Assembly (NCBI GenBank): GCA_016181965.1
Contig: JACOYH010000003.1
Location: 129,013-193,012 of the forward strand
Length of the DNA: 64,000 bases
Source: Candidatus Nealsonbacteria bacterium
GTDB lineage: Bacteria; Patescibacteriota; Minisyncoccia; Minisyncoccales; MHMH01
Reading direction: 5' to 3'
Shown here in pieces: positions 4,379 to 62,086 of the stretch; positions within the stretch are counted from its first letter, which is position 1, and every line of letters starts with the position of its first letter. Position numbers and translations under genes: made by a program. The notes under the pieces were generated by a model. It was not told the origin of the DNA and made no database searches. It saw nothing but the letters and a program-made list of their open reading frames with translations.

Positions 4379-4394
4379 ACTGTCGGAAGGATTG

Positions 4395-4437
4395 CCGAGG
4401 ACTGTCCTTGCCAGATTCTGGCAAGGACAGTCCTCGG
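4395..4437. repeat. 43-nt palindrome, family A copy 1
   Basis: CCGAGGACTGTCCTTGCCAGA-T-TCTGGCAAGGACAGTCCTCGG, 21-nt perfect arms. Second copy at 31514..31556 with central A. Confidence 0.9.
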
Positions 4438-4465
4438 CAGCTCGGCATGTGGATAAGTAGGGTGG

Positions 4466-8907: not shown

Positions 8908-8985
8908 GGCCCTATCGTCTAGCTCGGTTTAGGACACATGGTTCTCAACCATGTAACACCGGTTCAAATCCGGTTGGGGCCGCCA
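8908..8985 (+). tRNA. tRNA-Glu (anticodon CTC), CCA encoded
   Basis: Cloverleaf read by hand. Acceptor GGCCCTA/TGGGGCC, anticodon stem CATGG/CCATG with loop TTCTCAA, T-arm ACCGG-TTCAAAT-CCGGT, 3' GCCA. Confidence 0.85.
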
Positions 8986-9022
8986 GCAAATTGCCGCCTT
9001 TTTAATTTTTAACGGTCAATCT

Positions 9023-9070
9023 GGTTGAAGCCAGGCTCTAACCGAATTCGGTTAGAGCCTGGCTTCAACC
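9023..9070. repeat. 48-nt perfect palindrome, family B copy 1
   Basis: GGTTGAAGCCAGGCTCTAACCGAA|TTCGGTTAGAGCCTGGCTTCAACC. Related copy at 15175..15222. Confidence 0.9.
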
Positions 9071-9090
9071 AACTCACTACCGAACATTGA

Positions 9091-9146
9091 TATTAGCGGG
9101 ATCGTTTCTCGCTAGTAATTACTAGCGAGAAACGATCCCGCTAATA
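9091..9146. repeat. 56-nt perfect palindrome (family C, single copy in window)
   Basis: TATTAGCGGGATCGTTTCTCGCTAGTAA|TTACTAGCGAGAAACGATCCCGCTAATA. Confidence 0.9.
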
Positions 9147-15135: not shown

Positions 15136-15174
15136 TACGGGAGCGCAGAGAGTTATTTAAGTTGGTTAGAAGTT

Positions 15175-15222
15175 GGTTAGAGCCAGGCTCTAACCGAACT
15201 CGGTTAGAGCCTGGCTCTAACC
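15175..15222. repeat. 48-nt palindrome, family B copy 2
   Basis: GGTTAGAGCCAGGCTCTAACCGA-ac-TCGGTTAGAGCCTGGCTCTAACC, preceded by a partial direct repeat GTTGGTTAGA (15161-15170). Confidence 0.9.
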
Positions 15223-15224
15223 AG

Positions 15225-31497: not shown

Positions 31498-31513
31498 TAG
31501 TGATTAGTGCGCA

Positions 31514-31556
31514 CCGAGGACTGTCCTTGCCAGAATCTGGCAAGGACAGTCCTCGG
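31514..31556. repeat. 43-nt palindrome, family A copy 2 (flipped centre)
   Basis: Arms identical to 4395..4437. Central base is A instead of T. Confidence 0.9.
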
Positions 31557-31588
31557 TAATCCTCGCAATGGACATGGTTTTAATTTTG

Positions 31589-42082: not shown

Positions 42083-42105
42083 ATACACCGGTGCCACCGG
42101 TGTAT
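42083..42105. repeat. REP-like palindrome, variant copy
   Basis: ATACACCGGTG-C-CACCGGTGTAT directly after the cupin stop, followed by the partial repeat TTCGGTGTATTTTT. Confidence 0.85.
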
Positions 42106-42193
42106 TTCGGTGTATTTTTACCCGTACGCTTGACATTCAGATTAAATATGCTACCCACCATAGTGGTACTCTATACACAAAAAGGAGGAACGA

Positions 42194-57948: not shown

Positions 57949-59253
57949 ATGCTCTTCGCCGTCCTTTTGGCCTCGGCTTTGATTTTACCGGGGCTTTTTG
58001 TTTTCGCTGCATTGTCTCCTTCCGAGGAGCGGACGCAGTTGGAAGAGGAATTAAAAAAACTCGAGGAGCAAATTGCCGCATACGACCAAAAATTAGACAT
58101 GAGCGCAAAAGAAAAGAAGACCCTGGAAAACAGAATTTACACGCTAAGAAATACAATTAAGAAATTAGATCTCCAGATTTACCAAAGCAATATACTCATT
58201 GATGATTTGGGGTTGCAAATTGACGATACCGAAGAATCCATAGAACAAACAACCTTGCAGATTGAGAAGGCAAGAGATCGTCTCGCGCTTATTATCCGCA
58301 CAATCGACGAGGAAGATCAGCGGCCTCTTCTTGGCGTGCTCCTATCAGAGGGCTTTTCCGAATTTTTTGACAATCTGGCGTCTTTGGAGGCCTTAAATAT
58401 TGATAATCAAAAACTTTTAGAGGATATAAAGTCCATGAAGATTTATCTTGAAGACGAAAAGGCCTCGTTAGACGAAGAACGAGAGGGCATGGAAAAACAA
58501 GTAACCGTTCAGACGCTGCAGAGACAACAGTCCGCCTCTGCTAAATCAGAAGAAGAACGATTACTTCGGCTTACAGAAGCCGAATATCAAAAATTTCTCA
58601 AGCAACGAGAGCAAACCCAGCTTCAAGCGCAGCAAATCCGTTCGAGGATATTCGAATTAATCGGCGTGCCCGAAGCCCCCACCTTTGGCGAGGCGTATGA
58701 AATAGCAAAATTTGTGGGAACAGCTACGGGGGTTCGTCCCGCTCTTGTGCTCGCTGTTCTAACGCAAGAATCAAATATAGGGAAAAATGTCGGCCAGTGT
58801 TATCTGAAGGTGCCATCAACCGGAGCCGGCGTGGTGGCCTATAATGGAAAGCAAATTGATAGAGTGATGAACCCGACAAGAGATGTTCCTCATTTTCTTA
58901 AAATTACAGCAAGTTCGGGCCGCGATCCGTACAGCACTCCGGTTTCTTGCCCAATGAGCATTGGTTGGGGAGGGGCGATGGGGCCAGCTCAATTTATTCC
59001 TTCAACTTGGGCATTATACGAACAGAAAATCGCTGCTGCCGCTGGCCACACGCCAGACCCTTGGAACATCGCCGACGCGTTTATGGCATCTGGTTTATAC
59101 TTAAAGGACTTAGGCGCTCAATCTAACGAATTTAACGCCGTAATGAAATATTTCTCGGGAGCCAGTTGGTCTAAATGGGAGGAATTTTACGGCAGATCGG
59201 TACTATCCATCGCCACTCAGTACGAATCCGACATCGCCGAACTCGAAAAATAA
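57949..59253 (+). CDS. secreted coiled-coil protein with C-terminal lysozyme-like/lytic-transglycosylase-like domain
   Basis: ORF 57859..59253, ATG at 57949 (signal peptide MLFAVLLASALILPGLFVFA). Long coiled coil. LAVLTQESNIGKNVGQC ... GPAQFIPSTW. Confidence 0.6.
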   Translation: MLFAVLLASALILPGLFVFAALSPSEERTQLEEELKKLEEQIAAYDQKLDMSAKEKKTLENRIYTLRNTIKKLDLQIYQSNILIDDLGLQIDDTEESIEQTTLQIEKARDRLALIIRTIDEEDQRPLLGVLLSEGFSEFFDNLASLEALNIDNQKLLEDIKSMKIYLEDEKASLDEEREGMEKQVTVQTLQRQQSASAKSEEERLLRLTEAEYQKFLKQREQTQLQAQQIRSRIFELIGVPEAPTFGEAYEIAKFVGTATGVRPALVLAVLTQESNIGKNVGQCYLKVPSTGAGVVAYNGKQIDRVMNPTRDVPHFLKITASSGRDPYSTPVSCPMSIGWGGAMGPAQFIPSTWALYEQKIAAAAGHTPDPWNIADAFMASGLYLKDLGAQSNEFNAVMKYFSGASWSKWEEFYGRSVLSIATQYESDIAELEK

Positions 59254-59274
59254 AAATAAAATAAAGCCACAAAG

Positions 59275-59297
59275 ATACACCGGTTCAACCGGTGTAT
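59275..59297. repeat. REP palindrome copy (loop TCA)
   Basis: ATACACCGGT-TCA-ACCGGTGTAT, 21 nt upstream of the RAYT ATG. Confidence 0.9.
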
Positions 59298-59306
59298 TGA
59301 TTATCC

Positions 59307-59312
59307 TATCAT
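59307..59312 (+). promoter_or_regulatory. -10 TATCAT, 6 nt upstream of RAYT ATG
   Basis: TATCAT, agaaca, then ATG 59319. Confidence 0.35.
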
Positions 59313-59318
59313 AGAACA

Positions 59319-60032
59319 ATGAAACGTCCAAAGTTTGCTAACGGCGAATTTTATCATATTTATAACAGGGGAGTAGAGAAAAGAAATATCTTTCAGCAGA
59401 TTTCTGATTATTTTCGATTTATTTCCTGTTTATATGAACTAAACGATAAAAAATTAATTAAAATGCGTGATCGTTTCGATGAACGTCAAAAAAGTAAATA
59501 CACCGGTTCAACCGGTGTATCTCGGGAACCGCTACTAGAGATTGTAGTATTTTGCCTAATGCCAAATCATTACCATTTAATTGTGCGTCAATTGGCAGAT
59601 GGAGGAATTTCACTTTTCATGAAAAAATTATCAAATGGTTATACCGGATACTTTAATGAAAAATATCATAGAAAGGGGATCGGGTCATTATTCCAGGGAC
59701 GCTTTAAAGCTGTACATGTAAAAAATAATAGGCAGTTGATGGCTTTAGTGTGTTATATTTTTACTAACCCCGTTGAATTAATGGAAAAAAATTGGAAAGA
59801 GAGAGGAGTGAAAGATTTTAAGAAAACTATTAAATTTTTAAAATCTTATCGTTGGTCCAGTTATTTAGACTATATTGGAATACCAAATTTTTCATCTGTA
59901 ACGAAAAGAAATTTTGTAACAGAATTTTTCGGCGGACCTGATAAGATACAAAAAGCCGTGGAAGATTGGATTCTTTATAAAACAGAACTCAATAGTGGTT
60001 TAGGGGGAATAGGAAGTATGGTTTTAGATTAA
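59319..60032 (+). CDS. IS200-like Y1 (HUH) transposase, RAYT type
   Basis: GEFYHIYNRGVEKRNIF, HUH block MPNHYHLIV, YRWSSYLDY (Tyr region). Very AT-rich gene. Confidence 0.85.
   Translation: MKRPKFANGEFYHIYNRGVEKRNIFQQISDYFRFISCLYELNDKKLIKMRDRFDERQKSKYTGSTGVSREPLLEIVVFCLMPNHYHLIVRQLADGGISLFMKKLSNGYTGYFNEKYHRKGIGSLFQGRFKAVHVKNNRQLMALVCYIFTNPVELMEKNWKERGVKDFKKTIKFLKSYRWSSYLDYIGIPNFSSVTKRNFVTEFFGGPDKIQKAVEDWILYKTELNSGLGGIGSMVLD
59498..59520. repeat. REP palindrome copy inside the RAYT coding sequence
   Basis: The same 23-mer, read in frame: with the flanking codons it encodes KYTGSTGVS. Confidence 0.9.
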
Positions 60033-60033
60033 A

Positions 60034-60070
60034 ATACACCGGTTAAAATACACCGGTTCAACCGGTGTAT
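60034..60070. repeat. REP half-site plus full REP copy
   Basis: ATACACCGGTT (60034-60044), then ATACACCGGTTCAACCGGTGTAT (60048-60070). Confidence 0.9.
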
Positions 60071-60090
60071 TTTGGGTTGATAGTGGAAAG

Positions 60091-60126
60091 AAAAAAGCGG
60101 CTTTGCCCTTTGGGACGGGTGCCGCT
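60091..60126 (-). terminator. terminator of pyrF (minus strand)
   Basis: Stem AGCGGC...GCCGCT. On the minus strand it is followed by TTTTTT. Confidence 0.5.
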
Positions 60127-60140
60127 AAACCCTTTTTTAT

Positions 60141-60869
60141 TCAGCTCTTTTCTGCAAGAGCCGATGCGATTTCTTCCGCGATCTTCTTGGCCGCGTCTAC
60201 GGGCGTTCCTATTTCAGTAGGTGGCTTTGTAATTGGGCGACCGATGACCAGAGCCGTTGCGCCGGCTTTGATTGCTTCTGTCGGAGTCATGATGCGCTTC
60301 TGATCACCGGCCGCCGCCCATTCAGGACGAACACCGGGTGTAATTTTCATTAGACCAGCAAGTTCTTTTTGTTTGCCGAGGAGTTCGAGCTCTTGGGGCG
60401 AACAGATGATTCCGTCGCAGCCAGCTATTTTTGCGTCTCGCGTTAGCTGCAAAACTTTCGCCTTGCTCGGCGCGCCGAAGATCAAATGAGCATTGTTCTC
60501 CTCAAGTGAGGTGAGAACAGTGACCGCGAGGACGAGCGATCGTCCCTTATTGGCAACAGCGGCCATCATTGCCTCAACGCCTGCCGAGGCGTGAACGTTG
60601 AACATTGTGACGTTCAATCCGGCGACTGCTTTGGCCGCGCCACCGACCGTGTTGGGAATGTCGTCGAACTTGCCGTCGTAGAAGACCTTTCCACCGAACG
60701 AATGGACGAACTCAACGACTTTAGGGGCCCCAATGGCTGTGAGTAATTCCAGTCCCACCTTGAAGCATCCGACATATGGTGCAAGGCCCGCCACTATGTG
60801 CATGGCCTTGTCCAGACCGTCTACGTCCAAGGCGACGATAATCCTGTCTTTTGCAGTTGTTGCTTCCAC
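60141..60869 (-). CDS. pyrF: orotidine 5'-phosphate decarboxylase
   Basis: IVALDV..., FKVG, DGKFDDIPNTV, LVIGRPI. GTG start 6 nt after AGGAGG. GC-rich. Confidence 0.9.
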   Translation of the reverse strand: MEATTAKDRIIVALDVDGLDKAMHIVAGLAPYVGCFKVGLELLTAIGAPKVVEFVHSFGGKVFYDGKFDDIPNTVGGAAKAVAGLNVTMFNVHASAGVEAMMAAVANKGRSLVLAVTVLTSLEENNAHLIFGAPSKAKVLQLTRDAKIAGCDGIICSPQELELLGKQKELAGLMKITPGVRPEWAAAGDQKRIMTPTEAIKAGATALVIGRPITKPPTEIGTPVDAAKKIAEEIASALAEKS

Positions 60870-60971
60870 GGCTGTGCCTCCTTAGGTTTATTTTTTTAAG
60901 GTATAAACCTACACTACACCAAATCAAGAGGAAGTAAAGAGTTCGCGCAACTAAAGATACGGAGATTGCGA

Positions 60972-60994
60972 ATACACCGGTTGAACCGGTGTAT
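60972..60994. repeat. REP palindrome copy, flipped loop (TGA), nested in a larger imperfect palindrome
   Basis: ATACACCGGT-TGA-ACCGGTGTAT, with outer arms AAAGATAC (60953-60960) and GTATCTTT (61007-61014). Confidence 0.9.
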
Positions 60995-61015
60995 TTTGGA
61001 GTTCGTGTATCTTTT

Positions 61016-62086
61016 TTATTTTGTTTCTGATGAGGAGGTGGCTTTCTCGGAGACGGCTTTTAGCAATGGATCGAGATTGCCGTTCATGATTGATTCAATA
61101 TCGTGGAAGTTTTCCTTTATCCGATGGTCGGTGACCCTGTCTTGCGGAAAGTTGTAGGTTCTTATTTTGTCGGCTCTTTGGGCGCGTTTAATTTGCGCTT
61201 TTCGGGTTTCACCCATTTTTTCCATCTCTTGTTCTTCTTGCATCTCTTTGAGTTTAGCCGAGAGGATTGCCATGGCATTTTCCTTGTTTTGCTGAAGATT
61301 TCTCTCGGTTTGAGAAGCCACGGCAAGTCCGGAAGGCAGGTGGACAATTCTGACTGCGGTCATTCGTTTGTTGACATTTTGTCCGCCGGGACCTCCCGAT
61401 TTTGAGATCTCTATTTTCAAATCGTTGGGATTAATTCTGAACTCCGTGGCTTTTGGTTTTGGCAGTACGGCGACAGACGCGGTGGAGGTGTGCACACGCC
61501 CGGCTTTTTCGGTATGGGGAATCCTTTGCACCCGGTGAACTCCGCCTTCGTATTGCATTTTTTCAAAAACATCTCCGCCCCTGCCGGCTAACTCAAAAGT
61601 AATCTGCTTAAAACCGCCCAACTCCGTGGGTTGTGAATCGAGGGTATTTATTTTCCATCCCTGGCTGGCTGCATATCTTGAATACATTCTGTAGAGGTCG
61701 GCAGCGAAGAGCGAGGCCTCGTCTCCGCCGGCTCCAGCTCTTATTTCAACAATAACCGAGCTGATTTGACTCGTTTTTCTGCTTTCCCCGGTAAAAATTT
61801 CTTCTAATTCCTTCTCGGTTTGTTTTAATTTTTCCTGAAGTTGCACCAGTTCGGTCTCGGCTAAAGATAAAAGTTCCCGGTCTTCCTGCGCTTTTATAAT
61901 TTCTTTGTTTTCTGCAATTTTATTGCGTATTTCCTCAATTTCTTCGTGCTTTTGGATTATTTTTTCCAGATGGGCTTTCTTTTTAGAGAGCTCCTCCATT
62001 TTTTGCCAATCCGAAATTAACTCAGGGTCACTAAGCTCGTTGAGCACCGCTTGATATTCATTTTTTATCTCCTCAATACTCACCAT
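61016..62086 (-). CDS. prfA: peptide chain release factor 1
   Basis: GGPGGQNVNK (GGQ), RVQRIPHTEKAGRVHTS (PxT-type tripeptide). Confidence 0.95.
   Translation of the reverse strand: MVSIEEIKNEYQAVLNELSDPELISDWQKMEELSKKKAHLEKIIQKHEEIEEIRNKIAENKEIIKAQEDRELLSLAETELVQLQEKLKQTEKELEEIFTGESRKTSQISSVIVEIRAGAGGDEASLFAADLYRMYSRYAASQGWKINTLDSQPTELGGFKQITFELAGRGGDVFEKMQYEGGVHRVQRIPHTEKAGRVHTSTASVAVLPKPKATEFRINPNDLKIEISKSGGPGGQNVNKRMTAVRIVHLPSGLAVASQTERNLQQNKENAMAILSAKLKEMQEEQEMEKMGETRKAQIKRAQRADKIRTYNFPQDRVTDHRIKENFHDIESIMNGNLDPLLKAVSEKATSSSETK

Follow-up and report, generated by a model that had tools for sequence, protein, structure and literature searches.

In the units known as REPtrons, a gene for a Y1 HUH protein with the signature HuH and Y---NP (REP-associated tyrosine transposase, RAYT, or TnpA_REP) is bracketed by a specific repetitive extragenic palindromic (REP) sequence; each paralogue has its own palindrome family, and the gene occurs at low copy number and is inherited vertically at a syntenic site (Nunvar 2010; Ton-Hoang 2012; Bertels and Rainey 2011). 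We analyzed a locus with the same properties in a 64,000-nucleotide stretch of a Candidatus Nealsonbacteria genome (contig JACOYH010000003.1, positions 129,013 to 193,012; hereafter the window). Its gene encodes a class-2 Y1 HUH enzyme of the RAYT/TnpA_REP-like kind, and a 23-nt palindrome stands upstream of the gene (copy U), downstream of it (copy D) and, in frame, inside its coding sequence (copy I). To judge from the homologous loci compared, the three hairpin copies of each gene evolve together, and each locus has a private hairpin. On balance, we consider the internal copy to be a tolerated in-frame cognate hairpin that is probably kept matched to its flanks by repeated copying, with the encoded enzyme as the likeliest agent.

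A specific palindrome was found on both sides of the gene in the window (59275 and 60048) as well as at most homologous loci, as in REPtrons. The window locus departs from the described REPtrons in its hairpin, which is a short, perfect palindrome without a GT[AG]G foot and with very few dispersed copies seen, in its low score against the REP_Tyr_transpos model, and in its Patescibacteria host, where several to many divergent paralogues occur per small genome.

The initial annotation singled out the in-frame copy as what sets this locus apart, but there is a precedent. In the TnpA_Y1 classification, in-frame REPs inside tnpA_REP are unique to subclass 2.4, in which they generally lie between HuH and Y (Quentin et al., 2018, PMC6006769). 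As in the window, the cognate REP there lies within its own transposase gene, leaves the frame intact and falls in a peripheral region of the protein (PMC6006769). The window protein is nevertheless not a member of this subclass: its motifs are NHYH, FQ, YIFTNP, and WSS, and its insertion lies 20 aa ahead of HuH, at a fixed linker that is the main site across a large clade. A second in-frame site, found in two homologues (L048 and L046) right after the Y motif, also differs from subclass 2.4. In our set, only the distant relatives L037, L040, and L042 share its 'double-foot' GTAG...CTAC hairpins. By a comparison of motifs only, with Table 1 of PMC6006769, the window protein resembles subclass 2.1 instead (NH[YF]H, FQ, a Ser-Ser tail, about 238 aa). 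For that subclass (Bertels group 1; TIRYT-like), Quentin et al. (2018, PMC6006769) detected no REP-like sequences. The nearest relatives retrieved from outside Patescibacteria carry its marker domain, Bac_DnaA_C, whereas the proteins studied here have no C-terminal helix-turn-helix of this Bac_DnaA_C-like type, have an insertion of 17-44 aa and are flanked by hairpins.

Palindromes within coding sequences are also known from intragenic REPs and Rickettsia palindromic elements (RPE), which sit in frame in unrelated genes, leave functional open reading frames (ORFs) and add short surface peptides (De Nocera et al., 2013, PMC3733652). Those elements occupy many unrelated host genes, whereas here the palindrome lies in the gene of its own putative enzyme and is matched to the flanking copies. 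In rolling-circle replicons, such as those with pT181 repC or phiX174 gene A, the HUH initiator has its nicking site in a hairpin of the initiator gene itself. The placing of an HUH substrate hairpin within its own coding sequence is alike, but those hairpins are plasmid or phage origins, and no sign of a replicon was seen here. Apparently new are the fixed position of the internal copy, its concerted evolution with the flanks, and the presence of such a system in Patescibacteria and in a subclass-2.1-like clade. Our literature search found no paper linking RAYT or REP systems to Patescibacteria, in line with the earlier statement that such systems are uncharacterized in genomes of the candidate phyla radiation type.

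A RAYT-like gene and its palindromes

The protein is identical to one recorded as 'transposase' of a Candidatus Nealsonbacteria metagenome-assembled genome (MAG). It has its HUH motif at aa 84-86 (nt 59568-59576; NHYH, aa 83-86), the catalytic Tyr146 (nt 59754-59756) in YIFTNP (aa 146-151), and a WSS tail motif. In an alignment of 34 homologues, N83, H84, H86, Q126, Y146, N150, P151, and W179 were among the invariant residues, giving the class-2 signature HuH + Y---NP. The only Pfam match was Y1_Tnp (31 bits against a cut-off of 23), spanning aa 72-147 only, and the NCBIfam equivalog REP_Tyr_transpos scored 37.4 bits, under its cut-off of 80. For the AlphaFold2 model (pLDDT 81, pTM 0.78), the best Foldseek match was the E. 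coli TnpA_REP bound to a REP hairpin (4er8_A), followed by the IS608 and ISDra2 transposases; a profile search against PDB sequences returned marginal matches only. The RAYT-like Y1 HUH identity proposed in the initial annotation is thus borne out by the invariant residues H84, H86, Y146, N150, and P151, the Pfam domain and the 4er8 fold. More than 3,000 relatives exist; the best 120 share 53-100% identity, and most of these have about 240 aa. Sequences of this protein in other assemblies were 100% identical, with no population variants, and tblastn with 87 family members detected no other paralogue within the window. The G+C content of the transposase-like gene is 31-36%, against 40-50% for its neighbours.

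All five positions at which the 23-mer had been reported (59275, 59498, 60048, 60972, and 42083) were recovered with their loop variants (Table 1). Reading the sequence likewise upheld the half-site before copy D and the arrangement of a gene bracketed by its own palindrome with one copy in frame. A pattern search of the window gave 10 strand-matches, corresponding to five sites on both strands, when 0.00 were expected (100 shuffles). The 8-mer arm occurred 12 times against 0.48 expected; one extra match, at 8956, falls in the T-arm of tRNA-Glu. The 23-nt palindrome is perfect, begins with ATAC and finishes with GTAT, and the canonical GT[AG]G foot is absent from its stem base. Folded as DNA, each copy forms a hairpin of 10-11 bp at -10 to -12 kcal/mol (z -4.6 to -7.8), and copy D folded jointly with the half-site reached -13.2 kcal/mol (z -4.2).

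Copy U begins 22 nt past the stop of an SLT-domain gene. Copy I with its flanking codons reads KYTGSTGVS (aa 59-67), the hairpin itself being YTGSTGV (aa 60-66), between YHIYNRG (aa 12-18) and HYH (aa 84-86), and an A-rich tract of Lys and Arg codons lies on its 5' side. In the structure model, aa 60-66 are the only segment with a pLDDT below 50, located between the helix at 49-58 and the strand at 73-80. The half-site belongs to a 14-nt tandem duplication whose second unit is 60045-60058, and it has no counterpart in the otherwise matching closest locus. A- and T-tracts flank the D copies, and from these (A4/T4 at the window locus) we infer the shape of a bidirectional terminator.

The leader of the window gene has no Shine-Dalgarno sequence. 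In many homologues, a clearer extended -10 box (TGnTATAAT) lies just past the U hairpin and is followed by a short leader, also without a Shine-Dalgarno sequence. A consensus promoter scan called no sense promoter at the window locus, so the -10 element proposed in Table 1 rests on the comparison with homologues. Copy U is probably outside the mRNA and adjoins the promoter.

Two other roles considered for the internal hairpin were rejected. A -1 ribosomal frameshift at the A6G run and hairpin is opposed by the A-run, which is off the X XXY YYZ register and not conserved, and by the lack of a long ORF in the other forward frames. Mimicry of a tRNA T-arm by the GGTTCAACC apex was ruled out, as the loop varies freely among loci. 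An Rfam E-value scan of 58800-61200 gave sub-threshold chance matches only (sroD, a snoRNA) and no known RNA family.

Table 1. Features of the transposase-like locus and related sites, in window coordinates
Feature	Position	Strand	Remarks
Class-2 Y1 HUH protein gene (RAYT/TnpA_REP-like)	59319..60032	+	237 aa; sole long ORF there
Upstream copy U	59275..59297	.	ATACACCGGT-TCA-ACCGGTGTAT, exact; ends 21 nt 5' of the ATG at 59319
Internal copy I	59498..59520	.	Exact; in frame within the coding sequence 59319-60032; centre at codon position 2
Downstream copy D	60045..60073	.	23-mer at 60048-60070, exact, 15 nt past the stop; A4/T4 extensions give a 13-bp stem
Left-arm half-site	60031..60044	.	First unit of the 14-nt tandem duplication AAAATACACCGGTT; half-site proper 60034-60043
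Solo copy	60972..60994	.	Loop flipped at its central base (TGA); lies between the start of pyrF and the stop of prfA
Solo copy	42083..42105	.	Loop GCC; starts right after the stop of a cupin gene
Possible -10 element TATCAT	59307..59312	+	Between the U hairpin and the ATG; putative
Orotidine monophosphate decarboxylase gene pyrF	60141..60869	-	55% G+C; its cassette occupies the interval from copy D to 60972

Internal and flanking hairpins across homologues

We fetched 80 loci from species-representative genomes and read them at the DNA level. The main comparison set comprised 48 homologous genes (38-100% identity), nearly all labelled Patescibacteria. A hairpin lies 8-40 codons ahead of HUH in 36 of the 48 genes, and in 29 of these 36 its 7-nt inner arm is that of the gene's own flank, compared with 15% in between-gene comparisons. 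The loop too is identical or reverse-complementary in 25 of the 29 arm-matching genes. Most genes down to about 40% identity have a perfect hairpin at gene nt 165-215, and most homologues have equivalents of U 26-100 nt upstream of the start and of D at the stop or at most about 20 nt from it. The stem varies by locus (ATACACCGGT, ATGCCGGGGT, ACAGGGGT, ATACACGGGT, ATACACAGGT, TTCCCGAGGT, ATGCACAGGT, CTCCATAGGT, TGTCAAAGGT, GTTTAGAGGT, and ATGTAGGGGT among others), and the apex GGT-NNN-ACC is largely kept in coding and non-coding copies alike.

The internal site stands out within the genes themselves. A perfect stem of at least 8 bp was present in the internal window of 24 of the 48 genes, against 5 of 236 same-size windows elsewhere in the same coding sequences. 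Among 30 internal hairpins, double-sided changes were observed in 9 of the 10 stem pairs and 91.7% of cells were paired, a covariation that none of 500 shuffles reached; because these hairpins were chosen as the best in their window, the comparison with the 236 other windows is the needed control. At the protein level, 84 of 119 homologues had three or more reverse-complement-compatible residue pairs at this place (2 of 119 in a control window), with more than 50 distinct palindrome-compatible peptides among them. What the homologues share here is therefore not one nine-residue segment: each has the peptide of its own palindrome. The pattern x-x-G-x-T-x'-x' is nearly universal (YTGATRV, CRGSTPA, NRGATPV, SIGSTYG, YIGDTYV) and is what a palindrome N6-GGT-NNN-ACC-N6' encodes. 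Genes with 50% identity or more form a clade in which the centre of the hairpin falls on codon position 2 (G-x-T), whereas in L037, L040, L042, L041, L038, L043, and L032 it is at position 1 and gives unrelated peptides. Since the reading frame of the hairpin differs among sub-clades, conservation acts on the nucleotides and not on the peptide.

The hairpin occupies a linker that, relative to the nearest relatives from outside Patescibacteria, is a variable insertion of 17-44 aa between helix A and strand 2. Those relatives have HUH at aa 60, possess Bac_DnaA_C and are without hairpins, and the distant relatives L078, L075, and L069 likewise carry Bac_DnaA_C and no hairpins. Self-insertion of the palindrome into a tolerant loop had been proposed for the window gene. 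The tolerance is consistent with the low model confidence at aa 60-66, but a lineage-specific insertion is not, as most homologues carry a hairpin there. The residue specified by the loop codon of the internal copy is in every case small or hydrophilic (S, A, D, E, P, Q, T, R, G). The flipped codon would read as a stop or as C, V, F, or L, and the non-coding flanks use both orientations. This constraint on the orientation of the internal loop indicates that the ORF is under purifying selection. In an eye count uncorrected for phylogeny, the loop orientation was shared between I and D in about 17 cases to 6, and between I and U in about 11 to 10.

Several loci bear signs of copying between sites. 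In L023, the I and D sites share one and the same composite palindrome of 47 nt, and internal doublets are likewise present in L020, L021, and L039. Mixed hairpins with one arm of each type were found in the internal copies of L003, L038, and L041 and in the upstream copy of L042. Arm duplications resembling the half-site of the window occur in the internal copy of L007, at the solo copy at 42083, upstream in L002 and downstream in L004 and L005. L048 (9992-10654) has an identical hairpin twice in frame (aa 58-66 and aa 151-159) besides U and D, the second site being directly past the Y motif with the peptide QLGGETPKL. Its relative L046 (1722-2387) has the hairpin at the second site only and a same-length non-palindromic segment at the first; the U hairpins of the two are identical over 27 nt, in genes that are only about 80% identical. 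Across the set, the stem type tracks the protein tree through single compensated steps.

The gene order L25 - SLT-domain gene - RAYT - prfA - L31 - rpsB is common to the window, L004, L005, L007, and L035, the last being a Wildermuthbacteria MAG. Because the hairpins differ at these syntenic orthologous sites, all copies must have changed in place. The closest relative is L001, with 76% identity and an identical hairpin; it occupies a different context in a MAG that also holds the syntenic L005, and its nucleotide homology with the window starts at the U hairpin and stops at the D hairpin. The RAYT-like gene is thus a resident that is occasionally relocated. Many divergent paralogues can occur in one MAG, each with its private hairpin: at least nine in JBBTTI01 (including L006, L012, L025, L031, and L063) and three in JACPGX01 (L001, L005, and L010).

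A truncated family member was observed in L012 (16920-17400). It has one hairpin (CTTAGGGACTTAGTCCCTAAG), then, 9 nt on, the strand preceding HUH (...SFVCYCFNPNHYH), and a matching hairpin at the stop. This remnant looks like the product expected of a deletion between the U and I copies.

Explanations for the matched copies

In the explanation that we favour, the locus would be a hairpin-bounded module around a domesticated Y1 HUH protein, in a form that seems typical of a large Patescibacteria clade, and the 23-nt palindrome would be the protein's putative cognate hairpin. Copy U would be placed to terminate the preceding gene and adjoin the module's own promoter. The upstream hairpin of IS200 can block read-through transcription. 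Copy D, with its A-tract and T-tract, would act as a bidirectional terminator, with a few solo copies at the 3' ends of other genes. Copy I would lie in a disordered linker about 20 residues ahead of HUH, its peptide being a tolerated passenger. Repeated copying among the three copies would keep them identical, loop included, with the set shifting in concert while the protein diverges. The likeliest copier would be the enzyme that the gene encodes, which would cleave single-stranded hairpins in cis and transfer the strands, and template switching inside the palindrome would keep both arms of each copy matched. In vitro, characterized TnpA_REPs have been shown to cut their cognate single-stranded REPs and to carry out strand transfer, with determinants in the loop and the GTAG (Corneloup et al., 2021, PMC8266576).

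A number of points weigh against this explanation. Binding or cutting of the hairpin by the window protein is a prediction, and the hairpin has no GT[AG]G foot of the kind used by characterized TnpA_REPs. A perfect palindrome also offers little basis for the strand discrimination that those enzymes show (PMC8266576). Recombination by the host, or slippage during replication, between repeats that lie 200-550 bp apart could equally account for homogenization, and the high prevalence of the internal copy could reflect functional selection instead of copying. About 12 of the 48 genes, or about a quarter of the homologues, have no internal copy but do have U, D, and an intact ORF, so the internal copy is dispensable. 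Finally, the loci were picked by protein similarity from MAGs, some bins are possibly mislabelled, and the genes are not phylogenetically independent.

The internal hairpin may alternatively be a selected autoregulatory site, as the initial annotation also suggested, a possible but rather unlikely reading in which the protein would bind the hairpin in its own gene and lower its own expression. Its target would be the mRNA or DNA made single-stranded during transcription or replication, and copy U, beside the -10 box, would be the operator. Such feedback would fit the persistence of perfect stems at orthologous sites in proteins that are only about 70% identical, the extended -10 boxes that directly adjoin copy U in many homologues, and the constrained orientation of the internal loop. 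That last constraint, however, is accounted for by protein-level selection by itself, and the dozen genes that keep U, D, and the ORF without an internal copy speak against such a site. In a variant of this reading, the A-tract and hairpin would terminate an antisense RNA. On the minus strand, the I hairpin and T-run were indeed called terminator-like (59485-59522), and the A-rich 5' flank is general in the family. The tract behind the antisense T-run codes for a conserved Lys/Arg-rich helix family-wide, and antisense promoter-like sites were not enriched (2 against 4.0 expected). Neither strand showed a G-U wobble bias among the imperfect hairpins, of which there were few. Identical loops and composite palindromes at I and D speak for copying, which selection for structure does not require.

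A bolder idea, which we regard as doubtful, is that the in-frame hairpin is a conserved self-targeting device: each paralogous Y1 enzyme would know only its private hairpin, and through the copy in its own gene it would sense and limit itself. The limit might come from binding to its own coding strand, from nicking that strand, or from cutting out the stretch between U and I; the L012 remnant would be a product of the last. The solo copies would then be terminators put in and maintained by the enzyme at gene ends.

It is improbable that the module is an active IS200-like insertion sequence, with U and D as subterminal ends and I as an accidental extra end giving deletion derivatives. A small Y1 HUH gene between subterminal hairpins is indeed the layout of the IS200/IS605 family, the homology between the window and L001 in different contexts is bounded by the hairpins, and the gene tree mixes syntenic with non-syntenic copies. 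The gene is also markedly AT-rich relative to its surroundings, and the truncated gene in L012 resembles a U-to-I deletion product. Members of that family, however, have Y---Q, near-identical multiple copies and often tnpB, whereas the window protein has the class-2 motif Y---NP (PMC6006769). No near-identical copies were seen within a genome, the paralogues in one MAG being 30-76% identical with private hairpins. No tnpB lies next to the gene, and a search of viral contigs found no relatives. At least five genomes, including the Wildermuthbacteria MAG, have the gene in one and the same chromosomal slot, which is what a syntenic resident gene would give.

Scarcely tenable is the view that the segment is a conserved protein motif x-x-G-x-T-x-x whose palindromy and likeness to the flanks are a by-product or chance: G63 and T65 hardly vary among the 34 aligned sequences, but the change of frame in other sub-clades and the same GGT-NNN-ACC apex in the non-coding copies U and D already refute it, and furthermore the residues around G-x-T vary exactly as reverse-complementary codons demand, the segment has a pLDDT below 50, and no matches are expected by chance.

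Solo copies, neighbouring genes and wider meaning

Solo copies of the palindrome were rare: the 64-kb window has 2, and related loci totalling 706 kb have about 15. They stand at the 3' ends of genes: after the cupin gene (42083), between pyrF and prfA (60972), and between convergent genes in L081. The copy at 42083 is followed by a partial right-arm repeat (CGGTGTATTT, 42108-42117) and a T-run. A metagenome scan with ATACACCGGTNNNACCGGTGTAT returned one contig only, with a solo copy between convergent genes, which is too little to judge genome-wide dispersal. The label REP given in the initial annotation is supported for the pairing of a palindrome with a RAYT but, over the sequence covered, not for high copy number, and because solo copies are rare, we describe the system as a minimal REPtron and not as a high-copy REP system.

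The pyrF cassette (60071-60971) sits exactly between the palindromes at 60048 and 60972 and has its own terminator-like hairpin. The syntenic L004, L005, and L007 lack it, and their transposase-like gene directly faces prfA. pyrF appears to have been gained at, or moved through, the hairpin site. Outside the syntenic group, a complete U-I-D module with the GTTTAGAGGT hairpin (41% identity) was observed in L032 (7193-7912) on a contig binned as Nanoarchaeota; either the module was transferred between domains among episymbionts or the contig was wrongly binned.

Other palindromes were observed in the window. A long perfect palindrome, (T)GCCGAGGACTGTCCTTGCCAGA / TCTGGCAAGGACAGTCCTCGGC(A), is present twice, at 4393-4439 and 31513-31557; both copies are inverted doublets of an imperfect hairpin and are REPIN-like. 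Their core, CAAGGACAGTCCTTG, resembles the hairpin flanking a Saccharibacteria-type homologue in L065, and tblastn with the 87 family members detected no matching Y1 gene in the window. Intergenic inverted doublets of a second palindrome family, TGGTT(G/A)(A/G)AGCCAGGCTCTAACCGA, are found at 9022-9071 and 15174-15223. An unrelated perfect 56-nt palindrome (9091-9146) lies shortly downstream of tRNA-Glu (8908-8985).

RAYTs and their REPs are the textbook case of a domesticated bacterial transposase. The clade described here offers an unusually clean natural experiment on the copying of REPs and their matching to the enzyme, with dozens of gene and hairpin sets of three copies each, one of them coding-constrained, that change together. 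The copying mechanism and the specificity code are open to direct test with short oligonucleotides and small proteins, several orthogonal pairs being available per genome. The results extend REPtron-like systems to Patescibacteria and to a 2.1-like subclass that had been reported without REPs, and they suggest where some terminator hairpins of these highly compact genomes may come from. If the self-targeting reading were true, Patescibacteria would hold orthogonal, self-limiting single-strand DNA editors, domesticated to shape the boundaries of their transcription units.

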